A DNA stretch of 25,023 nt from a virus (taxonomy: Duplodnaviria > Heunggongvirae > Uroviricota > Caudoviricetes). A program made the position numbers and the translations under genes. The first letter of the stretch is position 1. Every line of letters starts with the position of its first letter. This document shows, piece after piece, positions 350 through 21,400 of the stretch. The notes under the pieces were generated by a model. The model saw only the letters and a program-made list of their open reading frames with translations. It was not told the origin of the DNA and made no database searches. The stretch lies in IMG/VR virus record IMGVR_UViG_3300035698_032497, one strand, 5' to 3'.

Positions 350-453
350 CGGCGCGGTCATCGAGTTCATCTTCATCGATTTGGTTCAACAGAAAGGCAC
401 GGTGACGACGGCGATCCCATCGCGGTCGGCACCTGCCAGCAGGAGTGGGTCTC

Positions 454-1890
454 ATGGCTGACGACACAATCGAGCTCGAGGGCTGGACGCTCGATGAGCT
501 GATGAGTGAACGTGGGCCTGTCGATACGCTCGGGCCGCTCGTCGATGACGAGGAGATCGATTGGATCGGTGAGGACGACGAAGGTGACGACGTCATGGAC
601 GACGAAGACGACGAGGAAGAGTCCGAGCTGTTCGGTGAGATCGAGCAGGCGCTGCTCGAGGACGACGAGGATCCGATCTTCGGCGTCGTCTCGTTCGGGC
701 GCGTCGCCATGGCCAACCGTGTTCGTGACGCCAAGCAGGGAGCGCTCACCAAGAACGAGGGCTACAACGAGGGCTACCGCAGGGGAGTCATCGACGCTCT
801 ACAGTATGCTGGCGTGAGCGAGCGTCAGGCCGAAGAGGCCTACTCTGGCCTGTTCACCGCGATCGGAAAAGGCATCTTCGCACTGGGCAAGCACGTCGTC
901 GTGCCGGCCCTGTCTGGCGCCTCTGGTCTCGGGCAGGACGCCAACGTCAGCGATCTGGCGTATAGGGCCGGGTCTGGTGTACGTGAAGGGGTATCTGGAG
1001 ATGAGGATCTCGACGATCCGATCCTGGGTGACGGCATGCAGGCGCCCCCGGTGTACGTCGCAGACGACCTCGGTGCCCACGAGGGCGCTCTCGCCGCTTC
1101 GGCAGAGCTCGGAGCCGACCTGGACAACTTCGATGGCCTGAAGGGTACGAGCAGGTTCTCTGCCGCGGTCAGAGAGGACTACGGCTTCATTGGCCGTCAG
1201 CCGTGGTCGCAGGCCAAGAGGGCCGCTGACAGGGCGCTATCGGCCGGGCGCGAGGCTCTGGTGAAGAGCCCTGCTGGAGACTCGGTGTCGATGGTCCGAG
1301 ACCCTGGAGCGAACCCGGTCGTATACGGAAGTGGAAGGGTCGTGGACGAGATCCACGGGGCTCTGTGCGCTGTCCCATGTCCTTCGTGCAGTCATGTCCA
1401 GTACGGAGCAATGGCGAAGGGCGCCGGCAAGAGCTGCCTGGTCTGCGACGGATATGGAGCGATCCTCGTCCCAGAGGGAGACCTCCCTGAGTACAAGGGG
1501 TGTGTGGCCTACGGTGCGGTTTTCATCCCACTGCTCATCTCAGCCGCTACTTCCGCTGCTGGGTCTGGTGCCAAGAAGGCTGGACTCTTCCCGGACGCGT
1601 CGAAGAGGTTCAGTGAGTGGAAAACCGAGAAGACAGAGGATCTACAGGGGTGGGTCGCCGAACGTCGTGATGGTGATGACACCAGCGAGGCCATCTTCGG
1701 TCTTCAGCGCTCGTGTCTTGTTGGCGCTATGGTGCCAGAGTCCAAGCTGGACGCGATCCTCGAGTCGACGGAGGCCAGCGAGCTCGAGTCTTTCGCTGAG
1801 CTCGTCGATGTGGCCGACACGCTGGACGACGAAGTCGAAGATGACTACGATGATCTCGAAGATCTCGAAGATCTCGAAGGACAGGAGTAG
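454..1890 (+). CDS. Acidic hypothetical protein with a CxxC...CxxCxGxG zinc-finger-like motif and amphipathic/hydrophobic segments; putative virion protein
   Basis: ATG 454 follows AGGAG at 441-445. D/E-rich termini; CPSC-x15-CLVCDGYG; segments GLFTAIGKGIFALGK and GAVFIPLLISAATSAAG; 9 FG/YG dipeptides. Confidence 0.8.
   Translation: MADDTIELEGWTLDELMSERGPVDTLGPLVDDEEIDWIGEDDEGDDVMDDEDDEEESELFGEIEQALLEDDEDPIFGVVSFGRVAMANRVRDAKQGALTKNEGYNEGYRRGVIDALQYAGVSERQAEEAYSGLFTAIGKGIFALGKHVVVPALSGASGLGQDANVSDLAYRAGSGVREGVSGDEDLDDPILGDGMQAPPVYVADDLGAHEGALAASAELGADLDNFDGLKGTSRFSAAVREDYGFIGRQPWSQAKRAADRALSAGREALVKSPAGDSVSMVRDPGANPVVYGSGRVVDEIHGALCAVPCPSCSHVQYGAMAKGAGKSCLVCDGYGAILVPEGDLPEYKGCVAYGAVFIPLLISAATSAAGSGAKKAGLFPDASKRFSEWKTEKTEDLQGWVAERRDGDDTSEAIFGLQRSCLVGAMVPESKLDAILESTEASELESFAELVDVADTLDDEVEDDYDDLEDLEDLEGQE
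1852..1878 (+). repeat. 3 x 9-bp tandem repeat GATCTCGAA (DLE x3) in the C-terminal coding region
   Basis: Read directly at 1852-1860, 1861-1869 and 1870-1878. Confidence 0.9.
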
Positions 1891-1893
1891 ACA

Positions 1894-3048
1894 ATGAGTG
1901 GTGACATCTACGGACGTGGTCCCGGTCCAGGTTCCAAGCGCAGCTCCGTTCGAAGGAGTGTCGCGAGCCGTGGTAGGGTCATGGGTGGAGGAAGCTCGAA
2001 AGCCAAGCAGATCATGAAGCAGCGCCGGGCCAAGCAGCAGAAGCAGCAGCAGAAGCAGCAGCAGTCTCAGATCCCCATGTCCATGATGGAAGAGGCGTTC
2101 GATACCGGAGGCGGATCTGGATACGAGGACCTCTCCTCGGGTTACGACACTGGCTACGAAGAGGAAGGGATCATGCCTGGTGCGGGTCTCGACATCGACG
2201 CCTTGGCCGAGCAGATCTCGGAACAGGTGGTCGAGGAAGGCATCTTCGCCGGTCTCGATGTCTTTGGTGACGACTCGGACCTCGAGGACGACACCGAGGA
2301 CTTCGGAAACATCGTGCCAAAGGGTCAGCCAATGATGCCTTCGAGAATCTCCCGCAGGATGGTCAGCAGCATCGCCCGCAAGCGTGCGATGCTGGCCGAC
2401 GAGCAGTCGGATAACGAGCCCTCCACCAAGGAAAAGAAGTTGTCCAGGATCGACGACGAGATCCAGAGGATCCTCGACGAAGAAACCGGCGAGATGCAGC
2501 GCTATATGCTGCTCGAGGCCACCAAGAGGCGTGACTCGATCGCCTACGGCTCCATCCACTCCACCGTCCCTGTCTACGCTCCTCGTAGTCACGACAATGA
2601 GCTCGATCGCTACGGTCGTCTGCGTCCTGTCGCTTCCGCTCCCAACAAGTTCGACGCCTGGTCCTCCACCACCTTCGTCGATGGTTTTCTCGACGAGGTC
2701 ATCCATCAGATGAACCGGACCCCGGTGACCAGGGTGGATGCTGACAGGCTCAAGGCCCGGGCGAATCTGGCCAAGCAGGCCATGCAGACCAACGAGCGGT
2801 TCTTGCACTCCATCGGCGCTGCGGACAGGAAGCCTCTGATGCCTGTGGTGTCCACCAGATACGGCTCCATGGCTGCAACCGTCCCCGTCTACGCTCCCCG
2901 CTACCACGACGCTGACATCGAGCGCTACGGCGACGACTCCAAGCCCCCTGGCACCTTCACCGAGTCTCTGAAGATGGGCGCTGGCCTCGGCCTGGGCGTC
3001 ATCGCGGTGGTGGCTGGAGTCGGCCTGGCGGCCAAGGCCCTCAGCTAG
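1894..3048 (+). CDS. Hypothetical tail-anchored membrane protein with basic N-terminus, poly-Q tract, acidic region and an internal 24-aa duplication
   Basis: AGGAG upstream of ATG. KQQKQQQKQQQ tract; YGSxxxTVPVYAPRxHDxxxxRYG occurs twice; C-terminal hydrophobic GAGLGLGVIAVVAGVGLAAKALS. Confidence 0.85.
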   Translation: MSGDIYGRGPGPGSKRSSVRRSVASRGRVMGGGSSKAKQIMKQRRAKQQKQQQKQQQSQIPMSMMEEAFDTGGGSGYEDLSSGYDTGYEEEGIMPGAGLDIDALAEQISEQVVEEGIFAGLDVFGDDSDLEDDTEDFGNIVPKGQPMMPSRISRRMVSSIARKRAMLADEQSDNEPSTKEKKLSRIDDEIQRILDEETGEMQRYMLLEATKRRDSIAYGSIHSTVPVYAPRSHDNELDRYGRLRPVASAPNKFDAWSSTTFVDGFLDEVIHQMNRTPVTRVDADRLKARANLAKQAMQTNERFLHSIGAADRKPLMPVVSTRYGSMAATVPVYAPRYHDADIERYGDDSKPPGTFTESLKMGAGLGLGVIAVVAGVGLAAKALS

Positions 3049-3186
3049 CCGATCGTTCCGATCTGTCCTTCGTCCTTTTCTCTCTCACCTCTGCTTCCCT
3101 TTCCCCGAACCTCGTGATACGCTGCAAAGCGAAACGGCTCAGAAAGAGCCAAGCCAGCTACACGTACGAAAGACAGGAGATCCGAT

Positions 3187-4527
3187 ATGGAGCTGCAAGA
3201 CAACATCCTCACGGCAGAGGAGCTGTACGCAGCCCTCAACAGCCCCGTTCTCGCCGCTGAGGAGGCTTACGGTCTGCATCAGACCGATGAGATCTTCGGC
3301 TACACGGCCCAGGACTCCATCCTGGACGCCGAGGAGGAGTACGGTGATCTGGGCTCCGACAGCCTCGAGGACGAGGAGGAGTACGCTGACGAGGACGATG
3401 ACGAGGACGACGACGAGGACGACTCCGAGGACTACGACGAGGATCCCGAAGGCTACGAGCTGGACGAGGACGACGAGGAGCTGGACGAGATCGAAGCCGA
3501 CGCCTTCGGCACGATTCCCGCGGCCGCCTACCGTCCCTACCGCGACCGCTATGGTCAGGCCGTTCCGGCGGTGGCTCAGTCCTATGTCGAGGCTGGCACC
3601 CACGGTGACCCCCAGGCCGACATCAGGGTCAACGAGCGCGCCGTGGCCGACAAGGTCAAGGCCCTGTACCTGCCTGGCTGGATTCAGCCCGATGTCCTGG
3701 GCTTCACCGTCGAGTCCGAGATCGTCGACATCGTCAGGAAGCTGATCGGCGTGCCGGGGTTCGAGGGCTGGTCCGGCCTCGACGAGTCGGCCAAGCGCGG
3801 CATGGTCAACTCGGCGATGAAGCGGTCGCTGGGTCCCGAGTACGACGAGATCTACGACGCGCTCTCCACCGCCCTCAACGAGGTCGTCTCGGAAGTGGCG
3901 TCGAAGCCGGGATTCTGGGACAAGCTGCTCAGTGCGGTGACGACAGGCGCTTCCAACGCCGACGAGATCGCCATGGGCATCGTCCATGACGCGTGGGATA
4001 CCTTCTTGGGCATGAACATGTTCTCCGCCGAGCAGGCTGTCAACAGCATGGCCGTGTTCTACTTCCTCCGCGCCAAGCTCGGGGCCGCCATCGATGTCGT
4101 TGGCGAGTTCGCGGCCAAGGTGGTGGACGTCGAAGAGGGCGACATCCCGGACCGGATCTTCGAGTGGCTGTCGCCTACGGTCAACAAGTACATCCGCACC
4201 CTGCAGGACAAGGGTTCCGACTACGTGCGCTCCTTCGTGGACGCCGTGTCTGCCTTCGTCGACCCGTACGATGGCTGGATCGATGCGATCGACGCGTCGT
4301 GGGCCGAGCACCTCTTCGTCGTCGAGGGCGCCTTCACCCAGGCACCCGCTCCCGCCTCCGATGTCGGCCCTGGCGCTGGCCCCATGGTCAGCCCGCCCCA
4401 GACAGATGGCTACACCGAGGACGTGGTTGCTCCCGCCGCAGCCGGCTGGAAGCTGCCCACCGTTCCGACCATCATCGGCGTGGGCGCCGCTGCCATGACC
4501 GTTGCCGCCCTGCTCAAGGGTCGGTAG
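3187..4527 (+). CDS. Hypothetical tail-anchored protein: acidic N-terminal ~100 aa, helical core, Pro/Ala linker, C-terminal TM helix; probably highly expressed
   Basis: CAGGAGA SD upstream of ATG. Strongly C/G-ending codons; ends IIGVGAAAMTVAALLKGR. Confidence 0.85.
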   Translation: MELQDNILTAEELYAALNSPVLAAEEAYGLHQTDEIFGYTAQDSILDAEEEYGDLGSDSLEDEEEYADEDDDEDDDEDDSEDYDEDPEGYELDEDDEELDEIEADAFGTIPAAAYRPYRDRYGQAVPAVAQSYVEAGTHGDPQADIRVNERAVADKVKALYLPGWIQPDVLGFTVESEIVDIVRKLIGVPGFEGWSGLDESAKRGMVNSAMKRSLGPEYDEIYDALSTALNEVVSEVASKPGFWDKLLSAVTTGASNADEIAMGIVHDAWDTFLGMNMFSAEQAVNSMAVFYFLRAKLGAAIDVVGEFAAKVVDVEEGDIPDRIFEWLSPTVNKYIRTLQDKGSDYVRSFVDAVSAFVDPYDGWIDAIDASWAEHLFVVEGAFTQAPAPASDVGPGAGPMVSPPQTDGYTEDVVAPAAAGWKLPTVPTIIGVGAAAMTVAALLKGR

Positions 4528-4551
4528 AGGGTCTCTGGACACGGAGAAGAA

Positions 4552-4845
4552 ATGAGCGCTCAGCGGCCGGCACCTCGGAATCGTGGGCTGCCGGCCGAGG
4601 GCACTTCCCGGAGCCGGGAGGAGCATCTGCGCAGGCTCACTGCCCGTGAGGCCGTTGAGGTCCTCGCTCATCAGCTCGAAGTCGAGCGTGGTGAGCGAGC
4701 TCGTGTCCAGACAGGAGAGCTCATCATGACGGCCGCTTTTCTCGGCGCCGTCTTCGGTGGCAGCTATGCTGTCGTTAGACACTTCAAGATGAAAGACCTA
4801 CGAAAGATTCCGTCGGTGGCCAAGAATGGTCGTCGCAGGAGGTGA
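4552..4845 (+). CDS. Small hypothetical membrane protein with basic tail
   Basis: GGAG upstream of ATG. Hydrophobic LIMTAAFLGAVFGGSYAVV followed by K/R-rich C-terminus; its stop lies within the SD region of the next gene. Confidence 0.7.
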   Translation: MSAQRPAPRNRGLPAEGTSRSREEHLRRLTAREAVEVLAHQLEVERGERARVQTGELIMTAAFLGAVFGGSYAVVRHFKMKDLRKIPSVAKNGRRRR

Positions 4846-4847
4846 GC

Positions 4848-5174
4848 ATGGCAAGGAACAAGGGCCGCTGCGGCTGTGACGACGAGTTCGAGGGCATGGC
4901 CCCGTTCGGAAAGGACGAGGACTTTGGTTCCCTGTACCGCTCACGCCCCTACGGGCTGGTCCCCAACATGGACTCGACCGAACAGCGCATCATGGACGCT
5001 CGCTCTGGAAGCACCGGCTGGCGCGGCACCAAGCCCAGCTTCGGCTCCGAGGGCTATGGTGACGACAGCGTGCAGGTCGGCGTCGGCCACGAAGGCCTGT
5101 GGTTCAAGGGCGATAGCGTCACCGCGGTCGCTCTGGCCGGCATCGGACTGGCCGCTGTCATCTTCTCCAGGTAG
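4848..5174 (+). CDS. Small tail-anchored hypothetical protein rich in FG/YG motifs
   Basis: Strong AGGAGGTG SD (4837-4844) before ATG 4848. Five FG/YG in ~108 aa; C-terminal VTAVALAGIGLAAVIFSR. Confidence 0.8.
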   Translation: MARNKGRCGCDDEFEGMAPFGKDEDFGSLYRSRPYGLVPNMDSTEQRIMDARSGSTGWRGTKPSFGSEGYGDDSVQVGVGHEGLWFKGDSVTAVALAGIGLAAVIFSR

Positions 5175-5242: not shown

Positions 5243-6262
5243 ATGAGCAACGATCGCTGGCAGCCCTACCCGTCCAAGACCAAGGGCCCACGCAGCCCGC
5301 AGGTTCAGCGCGACTTCACCAGCACCGACCAGCTCGCGCTCCGGCAGAGCGGTCAGGTGATGGATCACAACGAAGATCTCGCTCAGCAGTACCGCCAGGT
5401 CGAACGCCGTATCATTGACCCGTACGCTGCCCGTGCAGCGGAAGAGTCGATGAAGGCGGCCAGGTACAGGACGGTGCACGCAGGCATGCAGGTTGGCCCG
5501 GAGAGGGTCGCCTATCCAGCTCCGAGCGTCGCGGGCTGGAGGACGACCCAGATGGGAACGGTCGGCATGGCCGCTGGTTACGAACAGCAGCCATGGGACG
5601 CCAGGCATCAGGCTGGGTTCCTGGAGACCGGCTCGAGAGCTCCGGGGTTCTCCAACGAGCTCGACCGGGCAGAGAAGAACCGCTGGCAGTCTGGGATCCT
5701 GGGGCTCAACCTGGCCACAGAGGCGATGACTCTGCATCCGTCCGCTGAGAGGCCATACCTCAGCATGAGGGGCTCCCCGAACGTGGGCAACACGGAGCTG
5801 GTGGTTCGGCTCACAGCGGGCTCTCCCGGCGGCGCCGAGACTCAGCGGACCTTCTTTCTTGGCGGTGGGTTCACGGCGTCCTTCCTGCTGGATGGTTACC
5901 AGACCGTCCGTGTCGAGATCCTCTCCAAGACGAACCTGACCGACGTGCTGCAGTGGGCCTGGGAGGTGACCGGGCTGCAGGCTGGAGACCAGCAGCTGTA
6001 CCTCGCACAGACCTATGTGACAGGAGGTGTGAACACGACCTTCAACGTACCAGAGGGTGCCTACGAGGTCTCATGGAGCCAGTCTCCAACCAGTGACGTC
6101 GGAGTGAACGGTGTTCATTGGGTGAACCCGTTGATCGGTATCGACATGGTCGCTCCGCTGCTCATGCTTCCGTGGATTCGTTGGACGGTGCAGGGCTCTC
6201 AGTTCATCATCGACAACGCTGTCCCGGACATGGTCGCCATGTGGTACATCAGGCCCATCTAG
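5243..6262 (+). CDS. Paralogue 1 of a tandem triplet: conserved Q/R/A/G-rich N-half plus beta-rich C-half; putative virion vertex/surface protein
   Basis: GGAGG SD at 5231. Aligns by eye over its whole length with 6272-7360 and 7360-8316 (DPYAARAAEE, QPWDAR, RAEKNRWQSG, FFLGGGFT, VPEGA, terminal WxxRP[IL]). Confidence 0.85.
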   Translation: MSNDRWQPYPSKTKGPRSPQVQRDFTSTDQLALRQSGQVMDHNEDLAQQYRQVERRIIDPYAARAAEESMKAARYRTVHAGMQVGPERVAYPAPSVAGWRTTQMGTVGMAAGYEQQPWDARHQAGFLETGSRAPGFSNELDRAEKNRWQSGILGLNLATEAMTLHPSAERPYLSMRGSPNVGNTELVVRLTAGSPGGAETQRTFFLGGGFTASFLLDGYQTVRVEILSKTNLTDVLQWAWEVTGLQAGDQQLYLAQTYVTGGVNTTFNVPEGAYEVSWSQSPTSDVGVNGVHWVNPLIGIDMVAPLLMLPWIRWTVQGSQFIIDNAVPDMVAMWYIRPI

Positions 6263-6271
6263 GAGTGCATC

Positions 6272-7360
6272 ATGGGATACATGGACAGGTACTCCGGAAC
6301 GTCGTCTCCGAGCCCGAGACGGGGCACGAAGAACAGACAGAGCGGAGCGCAGCGTCAGTCCAGAGATGGTCCAGCAACGCTCGTCGGGCAGACCCAGGCC
6401 CAGGGCCAGCAGGCCGGGCGGGGGCCCGTTGTTCGTCGTTCATTCAACAGCCAGGCCCAGCTGGCGCTTCGGTCCAGCGGCCAGGTGATGGACGCCAGCG
6501 AAGACCAGTACACCGAATACAGGCAGGTTGGTCGCCGGCTCGTCGACCCCTATGCGGCCAGGGCCGCCGAAGAGTCGATGGCCGCGGCTCGGTACAGGAC
6601 CGTACATGCAGGAATGGACGTTGGTCCGGCCACTACGTATCCGGCCCCGAACATGCGCGGCTGGCGTTCGACCCAGATGGGCACTTATGGTCGCCTCACT
6701 GGCTACGATAGTCAGCCATGGGATGCTCGCCTGCAGGCCGGCTTCATGGACACAGGGTCCAGAGGCCCGGGCTTTACCGATGAGTTGAACAGGGCCGAGA
6801 AGAACCGCTGGCAGTCCGGGCAGCTCCAGCAGGGCTCGATGACCCTGTACCCGACCCCTGAGCGCCCGTACCTGATGATTCGGTGTCCGTCTCTCGCAGC
6901 CAACGGCTCGAGCTCCATCAGTGTTCGGCTGACGGCTGGCTCTCGGGGCGGGGCCGAGATGAGTCGCACCTTCTTCCTCGGTGGTGGCTTCACGTCATCG
7001 TTTCTGCTCGACGGCTACCAAAGCGTGAAGGTCGAGCTGCTGCAGGTGCAGAACCCTGGGGTCGACAGGATCGAGTGGGCCTGGGAGGTCTCCGGCGTCC
7101 AGGCAGGTGACCAGAGCCTTTACCTCCCTCAGCGGCTTGTTCCGAACGGAGCCCTTACGACCTATGACGTCCCTGAGGGAGCGTTCGAGGTTGTCTGGGC
7201 CGCGAACCCGCTACAGCTGTCGTGGTTCAATCCAGCCAACGGTGCGAACTTCCCTGCGCTTCCTTTGGTCGGCGCCTTCATTACTTTTCCGGTGATGGGT
7301 TCGCAGTTCGAGCTCAGCAACAACGCTATTGATCTCATATGGAGGCTTCGTCCTCTCTAA
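6272..7360 (+). CDS. Paralogue 2 of the tandem triplet, with an extra ~50-aa low-complexity N-terminal extension
   Basis: AGGAG upstream of ATG; same conserved blocks as paralogues 1 and 3. Confidence 0.85.
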   Translation: MGYMDRYSGTSSPSPRRGTKNRQSGAQRQSRDGPATLVGQTQAQGQQAGRGPVVRRSFNSQAQLALRSSGQVMDASEDQYTEYRQVGRRLVDPYAARAAEESMAAARYRTVHAGMDVGPATTYPAPNMRGWRSTQMGTYGRLTGYDSQPWDARLQAGFMDTGSRGPGFTDELNRAEKNRWQSGQLQQGSMTLYPTPERPYLMIRCPSLAANGSSSISVRLTAGSRGGAEMSRTFFLGGGFTSSFLLDGYQSVKVELLQVQNPGVDRIEWAWEVSGVQAGDQSLYLPQRLVPNGALTTYDVPEGAFEVVWAANPLQLSWFNPANGANFPALPLVGAFITFPVMGSQFELSNNAIDLIWRLRPL

Positions 7361-8316
7361 TGGCCTCGAAGCAGCGATACCCTGTGGCCCGTCGTTCGTA
7401 CACCAGTGCGGACCAGCTCTCCCTGCGGGCCAGTGGCCAGGAGATGGACGCCAGCGAGGATCTGGCTCAGCAGTATCGCCAGGTCGGACGCAGGCTTGTC
7501 GATCCTTACGCCGCGAGAGCAGCAGAAGAGGCGATGAGAGCGGCCCGCCAAAGAACACTGCATGCGGGAGTTCAGGTAGGTCCCGATACACCCTATCCGG
7601 CACCGAACATGCGTGGCTGGCGTTCGACGCAGATGGGGACCTATGGTCGGCTGACCGGCTACGACAGGCAGCCGTGGGACGCCAGGCTTCAGGCTGGGTA
7701 CATTGACGCAGGGGCTCGTGGCCCAGGCTTCGCCGACGAGCTGGACCGGGCCGAGAAGAATCGCTGGCAGTCCGGACGTCTCCAGCAGGGATCGATGACA
7801 CTACATCCGTCTCCAGATCGCCCGTATCTGATGCTCCGCTGTCCGGACACCTCTGGGAACGGAACGAGCTCGATCCACGTCAGGCTCGAGGCCGGAATGA
7901 TGGGGGGCGCCTCGTCGACCCGCGAGTTCTTCCTCGGTGGCGGTTTCACCGCGTCTTTTCTGCTGGACGGGTACGCTACCGTGCGTATCGAGATCGTGCA
8001 GACGCAGAACCCCGGCGTTGATCGCCTCGAGTGGGCCTGGGAGATCTCCGGCGTGCAGGCGGGAGACCAGAGCCTGTACTTCCCACAGCGGCTGATCCTG
8101 GGTCCAGGCGTGTGGTTCTCGATCCCCGAGGGAGCGTTCGAGGTGCTGTGGAGCGGTCCGCTCGCCAACATCACGTGGTCGAACCCGAACATCCCAGCCT
8201 GGGTCGTTGCCAAGGCCGCTCCTCCGCAGTTCGTCAGCTTGCCGATCATCGGCAGTCGAATCAACTTCGCGGGCGGGGTGAATACCCCTGTTCTGTGGCG
8301 TCTTCGCCCGATCTAA
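7360..8316 (+). CDS. Paralogue 3 of the tandem triplet
   Basis: ATG 7360 overlaps the TAA of paralogue 2 (TAATG); GGAGG at 7341; same conserved blocks. Confidence 0.85.
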   Translation: MASKQRYPVARRSYTSADQLSLRASGQEMDASEDLAQQYRQVGRRLVDPYAARAAEEAMRAARQRTLHAGVQVGPDTPYPAPNMRGWRSTQMGTYGRLTGYDRQPWDARLQAGYIDAGARGPGFADELDRAEKNRWQSGRLQQGSMTLHPSPDRPYLMLRCPDTSGNGTSSIHVRLEAGMMGGASSTREFFLGGGFTASFLLDGYATVRIEIVQTQNPGVDRLEWAWEISGVQAGDQSLYFPQRLILGPGVWFSIPEGAFEVLWSGPLANITWSNPNIPAWVVAKAAPPQFVSLPIIGSRINFAGGVNTPVLWRLRPI

Positions 8317-8337: not shown

Positions 8338-8979
8338 CTACGGTTTCATCATCCCGCCGGGGGGAGCTTCCTGTGGTCTCCCAGTCATCTTCTCCATGAT
8401 CTTGCGCTGCTCGTCGATCGATGTCCGTTCGGCGGTGCTCGGTCCGATCGCTCGTCCGCCAGCACCTGGCATGCCTCTTTTGACCCCGTGCTTTTCCGCG
8501 TTGGCGAGCTTTGTTTTCAGCTTGTCCATGGCCGAGGCTGCGTCCAGTCCGTGCCCGATCGGCTTGCCGATCTGCTGTGGTGCTGCACCAGCCGGCTGTG
8601 ACGAAGGCGTGGCCGGCTCTTGGGCGGCGCTGATCTCGATGTCCAGATCGAGCTCCCACAGGTTCGGGTCGTCGAGATCGAACTCATCTTCCTCTTTGAC
8701 CTCTCCGTCGAGCTGAAGATCGAGGTCGCCGATGAGACGGTCGGCCATGGGGGCGGCGATGCTGGCGACGGCGGCAGGTGCGTGTGCGGGGGCTGAGCTG
8801 TCGGTCCCCTGTACAGCGTCCACGAGGGCCTGGATGGTTTCGGCCATCTGGTACTCCTCGTGCGGGAGGCCGGCGTCGCTCAGGACGGCTCGGATGCCTA
8901 CGAGAACGCTATTCAGCTTCACGTTCTGCATGTCTGTGTTTCGGGCCTTTCTTTTCCTAAGTCTATCTCTGCTTCCCAT
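8338..8979 (-). CDS. Hypothetical protein with basic N-terminus and Ala/Pro-rich linkers
   Basis: 213-aa ORF, GGAAGG upstream on the - strand, convergent with the + strand structural operon; no family recognised. Confidence 0.7.
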   Translation of the reverse strand: MGSRDRLRKRKARNTDMQNVKLNSVLVGIRAVLSDAGLPHEEYQMAETIQALVDAVQGTDSSAPAHAPAAVASIAAPMADRLIGDLDLQLDGEVKEEDEFDLDDPNLWELDLDIEISAAQEPATPSSQPAGAAPQQIGKPIGHGLDAASAMDKLKTKLANAEKHGVKRGMPGAGGRAIGPSTAERTSIDEQRKIMEKMTGRPQEAPPGGMMKP

Positions 8980-9048
8980 GCCGCCCTTCCTGGTAGAGGA
9001 TACTTGGTGTTATACTCATACCCTGTTTTGGTTTCGTACGCGAGTTCG

Positions 9049-9507
9049 ATGGAGGTCACCTTGAGTCTAACCACGGATGATCGAGACGCGAGGCTGCGTA
9101 GGTTCACGAGCCTCGTTCGCAGGATCGGTTCAGGCTGCTCGACCCCTGAGTTCAGGGAGGCGTCAGAGCGGGTCGCCGAGGCGTTGGTCAAGGACAGGAC
9201 GCCTGTGCGCGAAGATCTCGCTATGGTGACGATCCTGCTACTGGACTACATCTCGAAGCACGAGGCCTGGAAGTGGGAAGGGCCCGCCAAGAAGAAGACT
9301 GTCAAGGACGCCGGGAAGGATGACTCAGCGGCGTCGAGGCCGCGTGGAGCTTTCTCCGACGAGACGGTTGACGGATCCGAGGATCTGCCACAGATGGACA
9401 GGGACAAGATCAAACGAATGCGTGAGGTGCTCGGGCTCTCTGGCGGGCGTATCGTCGTCGGTCCGGGTGGTCGGAGAGTCCTTGTGCCTGGAAGCGGGAG
9501 ATGGTGA
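9049..9507 (+). CDS. Hypothetical protein (start ATG 9049 or TTG 9061)
   Basis: GGAGG at 9051-9055 favours TTG 9061. Divergent from the 8979 gene across an AT-richer spacer containing TGTTATACT. Confidence 0.65.
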   Translation: MEVTLSLTTDDRDARLRRFTSLVRRIGSGCSTPEFREASERVAEALVKDRTPVREDLAMVTILLLDYISKHEAWKWEGPAKKKTVKDAGKDDSAASRPRGAFSDETVDGSEDLPQMDRDKIKRMREVLGLSGGRIVVGPGGRRVLVPGSGRW

Positions 9508-9764
9508 TGCATAGCAAGATCGGAAAGAGCGTGATTGACTGGATGAGGGAGGCGACCGAGGAGGAGATCGTCGAGGCCATGATGGTGGTCGGGCCAGCCA
9601 AGGCTGTCCGTGTCGTAGCACTGCTGACCAGCAGGCTCGGCCCAGAGGCAGCCATGCAGGTGAGAGACGCGATCGATCAGACCAGGGCTGACCCTGTCGA
9701 TGCATTCGCCAGGGTGGCCTTGGCCGGTGTCGGTGTCTTGTCGAGAAAAAGGCGAGGACGCTAG
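9507..9764 (+). CDS. Small helical hypothetical protein
   Basis: TGATG stop/start overlap with the upstream gene; GGGAG SD at 9496-9500. Confidence 0.65.
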   Translation: MHSKIGKSVIDWMREATEEEIVEAMMVVGPAKAVRVVALLTSRLGPEAAMQVRDAIDQTRADPVDAFARVALAGVGVLSRKRRGR

Positions 9765-10051
9765 TTGTCGGGAGAGTCCCTCTTGCCCCACCTGACGACC
9801 TCGATCACCTTGACCTCATCGAGGCCGAGGGCCGTGACGATGTCGTTGAGCTGCTCGAGGTTGATGGGGCGCGTCTTTGCTTCCCAGGCCGCCCACGTCT
9901 GACGGGAGACGTCGCACAGATCTGCCGCTTTCTGCTGGCTGATCCCGACCTTCCCGTCATGGACGAAGGTTTCCCTGAGGTTGCGCAAGACGCTGTCTTG
10001 CTGCTGGGTGTCTTTCTCTGTCGTGAGAACTTCGCTCTGTACGCTGGTCAC
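9761..10051 (-). CDS. XRE/Cro-CI family helix-turn-helix transcriptional regulator
   Basis: LRNLRE...ISQQKAADLCDVSRQTWAAWEAKTRPINLEQLNDIVTALG fits the HTH_3 pattern; GGAGGTG SD before GTG 10051. Confidence 0.88.
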   Translation of the reverse strand: MTSVQSEVLTTEKDTQQQDSVLRNLRETFVHDGKVGISQQKAADLCDVSRQTWAAWEAKTRPINLEQLNDIVTALGLDEVKVIEVVRWGKRDSPDN

Positions 10052-10071
10052 GATAATCACCTCCTTCCATG

Positions 10072-10100
10072 AGTTTAAGTCGTTCTACTCGGGGTAGCAA
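10072..10100 (-). promoter_or_regulatory. Putative sigma70 promoter for the XRE gene (TTGCTA-17-TAAACT)
   Basis: On the - strand, -35 at 10100-10095, 17-nt spacer, -10 at 10077-10072. Confidence 0.55.
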
Positions 10101-10110
10101 GTCTATGTCG

Positions 10111-10139
10111 TTTACGTTATGAGTGCGCTCGGCTACAAC
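10111..10139 (+). promoter_or_regulatory. Putative sigma70 promoter for the RdgC-like operon (TTTACG-17-TACAAC)
   Basis: -35 at 10111-10116, 17-nt spacer, -10 at 10134-10139; back-to-back with the XRE promoter. Confidence 0.45.
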
Positions 10140-10163
10140 GACGCCATCAGTGGAGATGAAGTC

Positions 10164-11135
10164 ATGTTTTCAGGCAAGCTCACCGGAAGGTTCTCGTCCA
10201 TCGACCGACAGATCGGACCCATCGACGAGCTGGCGTCGAGGGCGTCTCGTGCAGCGTGGTCCACGGATGGGCCCATCCAGAAGCTGCGGCGCGGGTGGTG
10301 TCGCTCTATTCCTCCGTACGACGGCGGTCTCGACCTCGAGACCTCTGAGCTCGGCTATGCCGATAACGGGACGGGCCTGTTCCGTCTTTGGATTCGCCAG
10401 GACGAGCGCACTGTAGGAAGGAGGGCTGTTCAGGCGATGGCGTCGGTGTTGGCGTCTCGGGACGGCAAGCGGGACGATGGCATGACGCGCCAAGAAAAGC
10501 AGGTCTACATGGTCGCGGCCAGAGAACAGCTGATGCAGCGGGCTGTGCCCAGGACCAAGATTGTCGAGTGCTTGCTGTGCCGGGACCCAGGGTGGGTGTG
10601 GATCGGGGATCGGTCTGGTCACGAGACGTGGGCGAGACGGCTCCTGTACCCTGTCTGTGGGTCAGTGACGCCTGACCCGGTGTGCTGGGCTCACGGTTCG
10701 TCTCCCGGGTGGGAGGTGCTCTCCAGGTCCTGCCTGAACGGGTGTATCCAGCGTGATAGTGACGAGCTGTCCATCGGTGATGGCGTGACCCTGATGGATG
10801 TGCGCATCAAGGGGAGCCAGGTGAGGTGCTCGGCCCAGGGCGGCGGAGACGCTGAGCACACGGCGTGGGTGCGCCGGACGATCCGGAGCATCCTGGACGA
10901 CCCTTCGGCGGCGACGACCAGGTTGACTCTGAAGGTCGTCCATGGTGGAGAGAGCACCGAGGTAACGCTCGACGAAGATGGGCTCGTCCAGGCTGACCCT
11001 CCGATGTCGAAGAACGGGCTGATCAAGGACAGGCTCGAGCGGCGGTTCAGGGACGCGAGGTTCGCTGCGTCGATAGCTGGCGATGCCATGAGGCGGATCC
11101 ATGCTGGGCTGGCGAGCTCGTCTGTCGGTGGGTAG
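10164..11135 (+). CDS. rdgC: RdgC-like recombination-associated DNA-binding protein
   Basis: GW...FRLWIRQDERTV...MTRQEKQVYMVAAREQLMQRAVPRTKIVECLL...GWVWIG follows the RdgC pattern (GW...ARKEEKILP...[23 protein letters not shown]); length typical; GGAG SD before ATG 10164. Confidence 0.7.
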   Translation: MFSGKLTGRFSSIDRQIGPIDELASRASRAAWSTDGPIQKLRRGWCRSIPPYDGGLDLETSELGYADNGTGLFRLWIRQDERTVGRRAVQAMASVLASRDGKRDDGMTRQEKQVYMVAAREQLMQRAVPRTKIVECLLCRDPGWVWIGDRSGHETWARRLLYPVCGSVTPDPVCWAHGSSPGWEVLSRSCLNGCIQRDSDELSIGDGVTLMDVRIKGSQVRCSAQGGGDAEHTAWVRRTIRSILDDPSAATTRLTLKVVHGGESTEVTLDEDGLVQADPPMSKNGLIKDRLERRFRDARFAASIAGDAMRRIHAGLASSSVGG

Positions 11136-11161
11136 ACTGTTTGTCGTGCTCGGAGTACCCG

Positions 11162-11629
11162 ATGTCGGTAGCAGATCATAGCTGGCCACGCTGGCAGAAC
11201 GACAACCCGATGTTCAACCTGCGAGAGGTGGCGCCAGGGCTGTGGATCGGAGCGTACAAGTCTCCACGTACGCCACCGTCTGGGTGCGATCTCTGGGGCG
11301 GTATCGCCGACTTCTATGGGACCTCCCGGACGTGGGACGCGGGGGTCGTTCTGAAGAGAGGGTTCGAGGACGGGTGGCCGTTTCCTGATGGCACCCTCGA
11401 TGATGTCGAGGATCTTCTTTGGCGCGCGAGGGCTGTTGGCAGGCCGGTGCTGCTCCACTGCGCGGCCGGCGCTTCTCGGTCCGTCTCGGCTGCGTACGCG
11501 ATGCTGAGGGTGGTCTATGGGCTCTCCCATGAAGAAGCGCTGCGTCGGGCCAAGGAAGACGAAGACTCGGAGTATCCCGTCAAGGAGACGCTCAGGTCTG
11601 CCATGAAGTGGGTGGCCGAGCACTCGTGA
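11162..11629 (+). CDS. Dual-specificity / tyrosine-type (CX5R) phosphatase
   Basis: VLLHCAAGASRSVSAAYAML active-site loop, upstream acid loop FEDG, N-terminal EVAPGLWIG typical of DSPc; GGAG SD before ATG 11162. Confidence 0.92.
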   Translation: MSVADHSWPRWQNDNPMFNLREVAPGLWIGAYKSPRTPPSGCDLWGGIADFYGTSRTWDAGVVLKRGFEDGWPFPDGTLDDVEDLLWRARAVGRPVLLHCAAGASRSVSAAYAMLRVVYGLSHEEALRRAKEDEDSEYPVKETLRSAMKWVAEHS

Positions 11630-17848: not shown

Positions 17849-18346
17849 ATGGACATCGAGCGCGCATTCAGGATCCTTGGACTCGGACTCGAGGCATCGC
17901 TGGTTCAGGCCAAGCGAAGTTTTCGTTTGCTATCCAGGAAGTATCACCCAGACAGGACCGGGACAGACGCCACCTCGAGGAAGTACAAGCTGGTCGTGGA
18001 CGCTTATCGGGCTGTTCAGGACTTTATCGAGAACGGGGCGCCCCCAGATGAGGACGATGAGATCGAGCTCGGATCAGCCCTCAACGTGGTTGAACTGCTT
18101 ATCGGAGGAGAAGCTGTTCCTCTCGACTCCATCAGATCTCTGATCATCCAACTATCCCAATACGACAATGATTCTGGGATCACGTTCGTTCTGACGTTCG
18201 TGGAGCCATGGGAAAAGGGGGTCGGGAGAGTGGTGATGGTCGTTGAGATGGACGGTGAGTACGCCCGGTTCTCGGCCCTTGTGCTGGGGATCTCGAGCGA
18301 CGGGAGAGGGGCCGTGAGCCAGCTCGAGCTCGAGCCGGTTTTCTGA
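17849..18346 (+). CDS. J-domain (DnaJ N-terminal) protein, class C
   Basis: AFRILGL...AKRSFRLLSRKYHPDRTG...KYKLVVDAYRAV with intact HPD; GGAG SD. Confidence 0.9.
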   Translation: MDIERAFRILGLGLEASLVQAKRSFRLLSRKYHPDRTGTDATSRKYKLVVDAYRAVQDFIENGAPPDEDDEIELGSALNVVELLIGGEAVPLDSIRSLIIQLSQYDNDSGITFVLTFVEPWEKGVGRVVMVVEMDGEYARFSALVLGISSDGRGAVSQLELEPVF

Positions 18347-18352
18347 GCTGGG

Positions 18353-18382
18353 TTGACACGCGGAAGACTACGCTGGTACCAT
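18353..18382 (+). promoter_or_regulatory. Near-consensus sigma70 promoter TTGACA-18-TACCAT with TGn extension
   Basis: TTGACA at 18353-18358, TG at 18374-18375, TACCAT at 18377-18382. Confidence 0.65.
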
Positions 18383-18388
18383 CATGAA

Positions 18389-18470
18389 GGTACGACAGAG
18401 TTCGTCGCTCACCCATCGTCCCTTCCCGAGGCCCTCCTCGTCGTCAAGACCGGAGGGCTTCGCTTCGTTT
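18389..18470 (+). ncRNA. Candidate ~80-nt small RNA
   Basis: Lies between the promoter above and a terminator-like hairpin; no translatable + strand ORF with an RBS. Confidence 0.35.
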
Positions 18471-18471
18471 G
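18429..18471 (+). terminator. Terminator-like hairpin GCCCTCC...GGAGGGC plus TTCGCTTCGTTT
   Basis: Stem 18431-18437 pairs with 18452-18458; T-rich tail only on the + strand. Confidence 0.6.
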
Positions 18472-18489
18472 ATGCCTGAATCGGGCAGT

Positions 18490-21400
18490 CTACTTCCAGA
18501 AGATCGTCGGTCTGGCTGTTTCGTTCACCTGGCTCCATTTGGCCGGGTAGACGAGCAGCCACCCGGCACAGTTTCCGTCCGGAGAGTGTCTGAAGGCGTT
18601 CAGGTACGGGGTGCTCTCGACGGAGATCTTCATAACGAACGGTGACGGGCTCCACATCGCGGCGTCTTGCAGGGTCGCGGCCCCCCACAGTACGGTGAGG
18701 TTTCCGATGTAATCGCCGCCCTTCTCTATCTCGAGGCGTCTTCTGATGTACGATCTCTGCCTGTTGTCGAGGCCCTCGAGCCACTCCTCGATCTCTCCTC
18801 TGACCGTAGAGAGCTGATGGTCGCTCGAGATCCCGCAGACCTTACGCAAGGTCGCTGACTCTTCGTTTTCGGCGTGATCGCCGAAGACGGATTGGAATCC
18901 GATGTCGGGAGCGTTGTACCTTCCTCTGCTCCCAACGAGACTGACATACAGGCTGTACGGCACCGACTTGCTCTTGAGGATCGTGGACCCCAGCGGCTTG
19001 TGCGTGTTGTCGTTGTTGCCGCTTTCGTACATGATGGGCGGTTGCGTGAGCCACGTGAGGGCCTTGTCGATTCCTGACTCCATGAGGAACTTTTTGGCCC
19101 TGTCGAGCTCGAGGCATTCTTCGAGCGCGTTTCTCACACCCATCCACCCCTGGTTCGTGATGTTTTGCGAGAGCTTATCGAGAGCTTTTGCCGCTCTGCT
19201 GTCCTGTGTTCCGATTTGCTGGGCTGCGAACGAGATCCCGGTGGCGTACTGACCGATCTTTTTTTCGATTTTGTCTACGTAGTCCCTGCTCGGATTTTCC
19301 CAGCTGCCATCGTGGTACGTAGCGGATGACCACCTGCGGCTGGGATCGATCCCGCTGAGAGAGAAGGCGTACCGGATCTCGATCGATGGAATCTCGGGGT
19401 AGATGAACTCGTCGTAGTAGGATCTGATGCCTGAGTTCGTCCACGATGAGCTCTGGCGCGTGGCGTTGCTACACAGGGAGACGATCTTTTCGTAGGTGTC
19501 TTTTCGCTTCTTACCGTCGACGAGCTTGGCGATGAGCCAGGTCGCTTTTCCTTCTCGGTCTTCCGCGATCACCTTGGCCCTTCTCGCCCGGGTCGAGACG
19601 ACCGCGGTCATCAGCTCGATTCCGTCCATGTCCCCCTCGTCTGGCGTCTCGGCGCTCTCGCAGGCCTGGATTCCGAGCGGTGTCGCGAGCGCCATGAGGC
19701 TTCTGTTGTCAATCCTGTCTGTGAAGCGCAGCAGGTACTTGACCAGGCTCCATGGTCCGCAGTTGTCCTGGGACATGAGCCCTCTCTCGACCTCCTCGTT
19801 TGGGCCATTGATGACCTCGAACGAGTATTCCAGGATGTCGAAGCCCTTGTTGATGACGCCGTGGTACTCGTGCCTGCCATACCTCCTCCACTCCGGATCC
19901 AGTGACGTGGTGCCGGTGCCGGGCCGTGAGCAGTTCTTCAGGATTTTCCAGGTCTGCTCGGTGTGCCCCGATCGGGTGACTCCGGTCAATGTCGTCGTGG
20001 ACGGGGCCTTGTCGATGTCTTGCGCGTAGAACAAGGCTACCCGGTGATCACAGCATGCGGCTGCTCTGCCATCTTCCGTGTCGGTGCCGAGGATCCACAT
20101 GTCGTACAGGTAGGCGGTGTACGGGTCCTGTAGGCAGGCCAGGCGCGTGGAGGGGTGGGGGCCCTTATCGATCTTGGCAGCGTAGAGGAAGCTGTAGGCC
20201 ATCCTCTCTGGGCCGTCGAGAGATGTGACAGCCGTTCTGGTGTCGTCTGATGGGCCACCGTCGATGTCTGCAGCCCATGTCAGGATCGTGTTTCCGGTTT
20301 TGCCACGTAGGCCGTCGATGATGATCTTTCTGATCTGGGCCGACGTCGACGCTCCTGGGACATCTTCCCCGTATCTGATAGTGTCTGACGCGTAGGCGAG
20401 GGACCCTCTGGCGGTGACCTCGTGTGGACCATGATCGACGAGCCTGGCGTAGTTGACAGCATCGGATCCGTGGCTGGAGGCTATCTCTCTGGTCGCCGTG
20501 CCGGGGCCGTAGTTTCTGGCGATTTCGACCGCTGTACCGGCGCTTGGGCTGATGACGCGACGGAAGCCAGGAAAGAACGACGGTGTGAGGGCGTGGAGCC
20601 AGCCGGGGATGAACAGGCTGCCGTGGACGCCGGTAGAGTCCATGCTCTTGGCGACGAGTTTCAGCAGCGGCGATACCTGTGGGATGATCGAGGGGTGGAC
20701 GATGAGTCCATCGATCCCGAGGATCGATTTGACACCGATCGATCTCACGTAGCCGCCTCGTCCTATGTACTTGATGACGGCGACCGGGGTCATGAGCGGG
20801 TCGAGCATGATCGTGAACGGCATGCTCTTGAGGCTCGAGTATCTCTCTGGGTGGTGCTCGAGATCGCGGATCGTCTCATCGATCTTTCTTTCGTCTTCCG
20901 CTGCTCGTCTCCATGTTTGACCATCGAGCTGGCCGGAGAAGAATATGCGGAGCTGTTCTGGGATCGGTTGGTCCTCTTTGGCCCTGTAGGTCAGCCCGAG
21001 GTATTGGCCCGGCAAAATAGCGGCGTGTGTGAGGCGATAGTCACGTGTTCCCGTGATCTCGTCTTCGAGCGGGGTCAAGCCACAGGCATCGCTTTCCGAG
21101 ATCGTGGCGGGTGCTGGAAGTATGCCGATCCCCGGGCGCCATGCCGGAGGTATGGGAACCGTAGGGGCGCTCGGGGGAAGCAGGTCTATCTGCGGGCCAC
21201 TCTCTGTGTCTTCTTCTGGCGCGAAAACGAACGGAAGACCCCATGTGAAGGAACGGTGGTTGTACTGTGCCCCGAGGGTCGTTTTGACGTCATCTATGTC
21301 CCGTTGGTCTTCTTTTCTCGGCTGGAGCAGCATTGTCAGGCAGCCGGTGCTGGTGTCATCGAGGCTCGCGTCTGGATGGTCCTCGAGGTATTGCGCTGCC

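Follow-up and report, generated by a model that had tools for sequence, protein, structure and literature searches.

Why a virus should carry three consecutive copies of one gene is the question raised by positions 5,243 to 8,316 of IMG/VR record IMGVR_UViG_3300035698_032497, a stretch of 25,023 nucleotides, the whole of which is called the window here. A preliminary description of this DNA, made from its letters alone, had proposed three tandem paralogues, and three co-oriented open reading frames were indeed found on the plus strand, with all of the motifs that it quoted present in the copies. The encoded proteins are pairwise 55–65% identical and can be aligned end to end except for the first 10 to 55 residues; each consists of an N-terminal module (N-module) followed by two predicted β-sandwich domains, D1 and D2. 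We propose, with a probability of roughly 0.55, that the three genes encode vertex collar or penton-turret subunits of a lineage of tailless jelly-roll viruses of prokaryotes, sub-functionalised after triplication.

The same trio is found in four assemblies (two from ENA, one each from Logan and JGI), and a single contig of run X2, which may be the source sample, covers copies 1 and 2 together with the start of copy 3. Therefore, the array is not an assembly artefact, and the triplication of a two-jelly-roll structural gene is real. The window and a 385,225-base ENA contig are identical at 16,259 of 16,262 shared bases. The assemblies and runs containing the trio are salt-lake metagenomes, and three further runs match at an identity of at least 99%. 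Since an ATG at 7360 overlaps the stop codon of copy 2, the alternative start of copy 3 at 7339 is probably too early. No sigma70 promoter was found between 4400 and 9200, and the terminator-like matches in this region lie mostly within genes.

The C-terminal half had been expected to contain β-sandwich-like domains, and the models bear this out for both blocks. The C-half of copy 3 (residues 119–318), modelled from 70 sequences with a predicted local distance difference test score (pLDDT) of 91.5 and a predicted template modelling score of 0.84, is predicted to have a jelly-roll-like fold comprising two all-β eight-strand sandwiches, approximately 95 and 80 residues long, joined by a short conserved linker. 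The pLDDT values are 94–97 in D1 and 81–97 in D2. Neither an enzyme nor a known family fits the proteins, which favours the preliminary description. Pfam and PHROGs gave no match for the three copies or for 70 family members, and a profile of 70 sequences detected no PDB chain below an E value of 0.026. The ESM Atlas yielded no usable match by features, and by shape the best template modelling (TM) scores were a non-specific 0.50–0.51.

Among viral structures, D1 best matches YomS (Z 8.2; root-mean-square deviation, rmsd, 2.8; 85 aligned of 112), followed by the C-domain of A223 of Sulfolobus turreted icosahedral virus (STIV; Z 7.3, rmsd 2.5, 80 of 85 residues aligned), PR772 chain 6q5u_O (Z 6.6, rmsd 2.8, 83 aligned) and SH1 chain 6qt9_Y (Z 6.2, rmsd 3.0, 78 aligned). 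In the first model, D2 matches 6q5u_O as well (Z 6.7, rmsd 3.0, 83 aligned). The fold matches listed include neither PRD1 P31 nor the Sputnik penton, a single jelly roll with a large insertion domain, although such lists do not rule out a match. The recurrence of pentameric phage and virus jelly rolls among these matches, tied as they are with others, supports the vertex reading. It also raises the possibility of a non-capsid pentamer of the XepA/YomS type, encoded in a lysis cassette or exported, or of a part of a tailed jumbo phage. YomS forms a pentamer, and XepA has two such domains and is absent from mature particles (PMC6834076); both are, like D1 and D2, small jelly rolls, two short relatives of the family have M23 peptidase genes nearby, and tail genes could be encoded elsewhere on the 385-kb contig. 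However, the spacing of the two XepA domains does not fit (rmsd 21.7), and YomS and XepA belong to lytic cassettes of tailed prophages, whereas the gene described here is accompanied not by lysins but by the genes of a capsid candidate, of membrane-anchored proteins and of a fibre-like protein. No terminase, portal or HK97 protein was found among the Pfam matches or the 25 listed PHROG families of 48 neighbouring proteins. We consider this explanation very unlikely.

Subunit contacts were assessed in a five-chain model of four copy-3 C-halves and one copy-2 C-half. The model reached an ipSAE interface score of 0.80, compared with 0.08 for the best of three controls. Of the pairs scored for reference, 58 of 80 solved ones and 2 of 110 mismatched ones attain the pass mark, frequencies that are only a rough guide here. 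Contacts agree by at least 83% between runs, and the pLDDT of the copy-2 partner is at least 74. The copy-2 chain is predicted to contact two copy-3 neighbours via complementary faces, which is consistent with a ring without proving closure or five-fold symmetry. In the predicted packing, the D1 motif FFLGGGF lies on the PEGA motif and the G180 region of the neighbour's D2, and by the strand order derived from secondary structure the base loops of D1 meet the top loops and the sheet face of the next subunit. The predicted D2 interface is more conserved than the remainder of the domain (0.51 versus 0.35, p = 0.005, 45 full-length members; p = 0.09 when short relatives are added), and most of the top-ranking invariant residues fall within it. 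The fixed residues of D2 may therefore be read as ring contacts and its outer face as the variable part.

The contacts between D1 of one subunit and D2 of the next also recall double-jelly-roll trimers, and the proteins could be a second or minor capsid protein, either a small double-jelly-roll capsomer or a decoration or cement protein of the capsid faces, triplicated like the major capsid variants of giant viruses. The major capsid protein of phiCjT23 is the top Foldseek match in the PDB across both domains (E 2e-4, TM 0.39) and the only viral chain that fits both moderately (Z 6.8–7.0, rmsd ~6 Å). Sphaerolipoviruses have two capsid proteins, one of them two-barrelled (PMC6414509), and the genes of the capsid candidate described below are triplicated on one related contig. 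Against this, the comparison with double-jelly-roll capsid proteins stays below a TM score of 0.5 (best 0.39, rmsd 6–9 Å), and the side-by-side V1/V2 arrangement with FG-loop helices was not found, as no helix lies inside either domain of the model; phiCjT23 has such helices (PMC9719478). D1–D1 and D2–D2 contacts are predicted in the five-chain model as well, and the three copies are less conserved than the capsid candidate and lie 11 kb from it. A role as a second capsid or decoration protein is thus unlikely.

We next consider how the copies diverge. The preliminary description had reported an N-module conserved to about three quarters between copies 2 and 3, and 101 of 128 residues (79%) were found to be identical. 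Among the copies of the window, identity is 69–79% in the N-module, 59–70% in D1 and 31–38% in D2. Divergence along the length is therefore non-uniform (chi-square p 1e-5 to 1e-9), as had been claimed, with D2 the most divergent part. It is not progressive, since the difference between N-module and D1 is not significant (p 0.11–0.16) and the only significant drop is the step from D1 to D2 (p 0.005 to 7e-6). Moreover, the order N-module before D1 is limited to paralogues; orthologue pairs show D1 at least as conserved as the N-module, and among 36 distant family members the mean identity is 27.5% in the N-module, 38.7% in D1 and 32.2% in D2. The conservation of the N-module thus holds for the three copies but not for the family, of which it is the least conserved part. 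The C-terminus had been called fixed, and W-x-x-R-P-[IL] is near-invariant in 44 full-length members. Because synonymous sites are near saturation in all pairs compared (proportion of synonymous differences ~0.5–0.7), the ratio of non-synonymous to synonymous rates cannot be computed; the same saturation indicates that the three copies have been retained for a long time.

In a second virus (L005–L007) all three copies recur in unchanged order, and a third virus (L014) has at least two; one copy each was found in the examined DNA of L008, L012, L013, L015, L033, L037/38, L039 and L040. In a quick tree, the multi-copy proteins form one clade beside the single-copy protein P0007 (support 90 and 98), which has an N-terminal extension similar to that of copy 2. 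Positional orthologues are 74–88% identical in D1, compared with 54–72% for paralogues. In D2 the orthologues (63, 58 and 41% for copies 1, 2 and 3) are mostly closer than the paralogues (31–45%). Approximately unbiased (AU) tests reject duplication within each genome for D1 (p 5e-9) and D2 (p 1.5e-4), whereas N-module trees do not separate orthology from within-genome grouping (p 0.64 versus 0.09). Gene conversion may have acted on the N-module, although its synonymous sites show no greater closeness than the rest. From these alignments and trees, the triplication appears restricted to one small clade in which one-to-one orthologues have been kept.

The divergence of D2 among paralogues had prompted the idea of interchangeable spike subunits with this distal domain as a variable tip for receptor binding; such a tip would widen the host range. 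The low identity of copy 3 D2 between orthologues agrees with such a role, as do the non-interface surface of D2, which varies most, and the predicted mixing of copies; the distal jelly rolls of the STIV protein C381 are known to attach to pili (PMC10551542). However, D2 orthologue identities lie inside the 43–87% range of neighbouring genes, with only copy 3 just under it, so that the values of copies 1 and 2 are ordinary for this genome pair. Only three population variants were observed in four runs, at window positions 5403, 6945 and 8210; they affect one N-module, one D1 and one D2, and all are non-synonymous (E54G, R225P and A284D). At 5403 and 6945, the window residue departs from that of the other copies. 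With the invariant residues placed in the predicted interface, one-to-one orthology kept, no hypervariability in the population and other spike or fibre candidates in the element, a hypervariable receptor tip is not supported, and we regard it as doubtful. Because of the orthology, the ordinary D2 identities and the small number of variants, fixed and specialised copies fit better, copy 3 D2 being the most labile. The proposal of hetero-oligomeric, interchangeable spikes accordingly survives in part: the mixed model of copies 2 and 3 passes its controls, but the copies look stably specialised rather than freely interchangeable.

The family comprises about 70 members, of which about 45 are full-length and about 25 are short (170–284 residues, two β domains only). 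The N-module profile has no convincing match in the short relatives (best E 0.048) and matches no other gene in the window or related loci. The idea of a shared targeting tag therefore finds no support, and the N-module, the most variable part family-wide, is best seen as an add-on of one subfamily. It has no confident fold, with pLDDT values mostly below 50 in a first full-length model from 12 sequences. No transmembrane segment was found in the three whole proteins, in which the maximal 19-residue hydropathy is 1.2–1.6. No longer fused forms of the family were found, which is weak evidence. Since tblastn against GenBank phages, scans of IMG/VR with both the family and the capsid candidate, and a scan of GTDB with the latter returned no relatives, no host or isolate can be assigned; literature searches found no published description of the family or lineage.

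The three copies end a long plus-strand run, and the context is that of a virion-type operon (Table 1). The order of the upstream genes is the same in L005 and L008, and a minus-strand gene occupies the place behind the array in L005, L008, L012–L014 and L040. At window positions 8338–11629, this minus-strand gene for a 213-residue protein is followed by a small helix-turn-helix gene, an exonuclease-like gene associated with recombination (PHROG 724, E 1e-4) and a dual-specificity phosphatase, and the order of this block is similar in L005, L008 and L012.

Upstream on the 385-kb contig lie a small helical gene, the genes for a 264-residue protein with a β-rich C-terminal part and a 406-residue protein, and a gene in which a transglutaminase-like domain is joined to acidic tails; a RadA-like ATPase gene has the opposite orientation. 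The 264-residue protein, with 63 relatives, is the most conserved of the genes compared (87% between orthologues), and 85–96% of its ESM Atlas neighbours are viral; it is a candidate single-jelly-roll major capsid protein, as yet unproven, of the kind expected in a Singelaviria-like tailless virus. No profile similarity was found between D1 and D2 or between either domain and this candidate. In L011, L015, L033, L037/38 and L039, the two-jelly-roll gene shares one block with the capsid candidate, a transglutaminase-like gene and a RadA-like ATPase gene, and a block of this make-up, holding a single short two-domain gene, is also found on contigs of 11–35 kb, one of which carries an integrase. 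The transglutaminase-like protein may be the protease that acts on the operon's [YF]G motifs; its domain stands alone in small elements, whereas large ones have it joined to long acidic tails. Near the capsid candidate, no packaging ATPase of the FtsK/A32 type was seen.

The 35-kb contig L037 (also L038) carries three tandem capsid-candidate paralogues and a fourth (L037:7094-9584 and 18056-19456) but one two-jelly-roll gene, a mirror image of the window virus. The capsid-candidate homologues at L015:5678-7159 and L039:5531-7066 have N-terminal extensions of ~250 residues, as if separate acidic proteins had been fused to the capsid gene; that of L015 is rich in YG motifs and acidic residues.

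Table 1. Positions of the three copies, their modules and orthologues, and of associated genes (window coordinates unless a locus is given)
Feature	Position	Strand	Remarks
Copy 1	5243..6262	+	339 aa; AGGAGG upstream
Copy 1 modules	N-module ~5306-5689, jelly-roll D1 ~5690-5974, D2 ~5996-6259	+	
Copy 2	6272..7360	+	362 aa; extra ~45-aa R/Q/G/S-rich N-terminal extension
Copy 2 modules	N-module ~6431-6814, D1 ~6815-7096, D2 ~7118-7357	+	
Copy 3	7360..8316	+	318 aa; start overlaps copy 2 stop (TAATG)
Copy 3 N-module	7387..7770	+	residues 10-137; predicted partly helical, no confident monomer fold
Copy 3 D1	7771..8052	+	residues 138-231; predicted 8-strand jelly-roll-like sandwich
Copy 3 D2	8074..8313	+	residues 239-318; predicted smaller β-sandwich; invariant PEGA, W, G and C-terminal WxxRP; outer surface variable
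Copy 1 orthologue	L005 8966-9991		D1 88%, D2 63%
Copy 2 orthologue	P0003 in L005		D1 80%, D2 58%
Copy 3 orthologue	L005 11086-12048		D1 74%, D2 41%
Upstream genes of the same run	445..5174	+	acidic, [YF]G-rich; several with C-terminal hydrophobic helix; candidate membrane-side partners
Convergent gene closing the structural run	8338..8979	-	213 aa
Capsid candidate	L011:5490-6284		264 aa; same contig, upstream of the window
406-aa protein and homologues	L011:6444-7664; L015:7210-7614; L039:7126-7542		
Transglutaminase-like domain	L001:1243-3426; L015:8359-8781		DCEDLA motif; Pfam E 5e-4 for one member
RadA/Sms-like ATPase and partner gene	L011:2263-4605	-	head to head with the capsid candidate at almost every locus

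Known vertex proteins share parts of this build. STIV A223 is a two-jelly-roll penton with an N-terminal anchor (PMC10551542), and A223 and C381 resemble the present proteins in carrying tandem small jelly rolls behind an N-terminal arm, with a pentameric vertex role known for STIV. No sequence similarity to A223 was found. Furthermore, the arm described here is ~130 residues long and partly helical, unlike the short β-strands of A223, there are three paralogues instead of one, and from its length the capsid candidate does not seem double-jelly-roll-like. In PR772, three P5 and two P31 share one hetero-pentameric ring (PMC6750898). Paralogous jelly-roll domains in one ring are a likeness to PR772 and PRD1, with mixing only predicted here, and chain 6q5u_O matches both D1 and D2. 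In contrast, P31 has a single domain and P5 a collagen stalk with a trimeric knob, whereas the three copies share a single two-domain build that ends after D2, with no collagen repeat such as that of the tectivirus stalk.

In PBCV-1 (Paramecium bursaria chlorella virus 1), the P1 protein of the penton and P1v1, a variant of it, are paralogues for different vertices with a conserved base and different outer parts (PMC9617893). Penton paralogues are thus retained there too, an alternative to mixed rings, but this is a giant virus of eukaryotes whose variants are ~10% identical and have loop insertions as outer domains, and it gave no match in our searches. Among sphaerolipovirus-type vertex proteins, VP9 of SH1, HCIV-1 and HHIV-2 is a jelly-roll penton whose helical N-terminal arm runs inward and contacts membrane proteins, and VP16 of HHIV-2 is a pentamer with multiple jelly rolls that extends across the penton (PMC6441041, PMC6414509). 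Unlike the copies, VP9 has one jelly roll; it has no sequence link to them, and the contig of the window is 385 kb long. In summary, the proteins would work like known vertex proteins but membership of none of these groups is demonstrated, and penton paralogy itself has precedents.

On the vertex reading, we infer the location in the virion, the five-fold symmetry, the capsid type and the function of the arm, while the contacts and the mixing of subunits are predicted by the models. The subunits would form a ring complex at the five-fold vertices, either as the penton base or as a collar or turret layer above it. D1 and the invariant face of D2 would lock onto neighbouring subunits, while D2's outer face would be open to variation and probably dock other spike parts. 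In A223 and VP9 the N-termini extend to inner membrane proteins (PMC10551542, PMC6441041); by analogy, the N-module may be an arm that becomes folded during assembly and tethers the ring to partners limited to the lineage's larger members. The normally single gene would have been triplicated in one ancestor, each copy gaining a fixed role. Since triplication is combined with a conserved interface, these roles could lie in rings of mixed composition, the PR772 arrangement (PMC6750898), or in separate rings for different vertices, as in PBCV-1 (PMC9617893), between which the data do not separate.

Several observations weigh against the vertex reading. The best Z scores (8.2–8.4) are tied with domains of complement C5, tripeptidyl peptidase II and thiamin pyrophosphokinase. 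As viral matches tie with non-viral sandwiches over Z 6–8.4, the fold shows no function by itself, and the expected match to vertex proteins, found for STIV A223, PR772 and SH1 chains, is not specific. The A223 chains align over a single domain only (80–82 residues), so that the stacking of domain 2 above domain 1 probably differs from that of A223, unless a hinge difference accounts for this. Close cousins pass the five-chain test regardless, and oligomer modelling covered five-chain assemblies only. The contacts, taken from residue lists and not from coordinates, suggest that the subunits are packed at a tilt or head to tail and not as upright pentons. The capsid candidate has no PDB or PHROG match. 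Directly behind it lies the gene for the 406-residue protein, which has two homologous β domains (HHalign 98.5%) and a third domain, and single-domain homologues of 134–138 residues follow the capsid candidate in small elements. It is a second penton-base candidate, and could be a rival penton base or a C381-like turret. Finally, the scan for tail genes covered neighbouring proteins and not the whole 385-kb genome, so that such genes may lie elsewhere.

The ~70 members described here form an unannotated structural family that marks a lineage of uncultured viruses on contigs of ~10 kb to 385 kb. If the vertex reading is true, this lineage offers a natural comparison of one-gene and three-gene vertices in close relatives, and why viruses duplicate penton genes, for mixed rings or for special vertices, becomes testable. 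A further-reaching picture is speculative and in our view improbable, namely a 385-kb tailless single-jelly-roll virus in a lineage that includes small integrase-bearing elements, whose vertices are ordered hetero-pentamers of three paralogues forming a tilted collar unlike solved pentons and serving as an asymmetric docking platform. If the 264-residue candidate is a single-jelly-roll capsid protein, the 385-kb element would be a jumbo tailless virus of prokaryotes.

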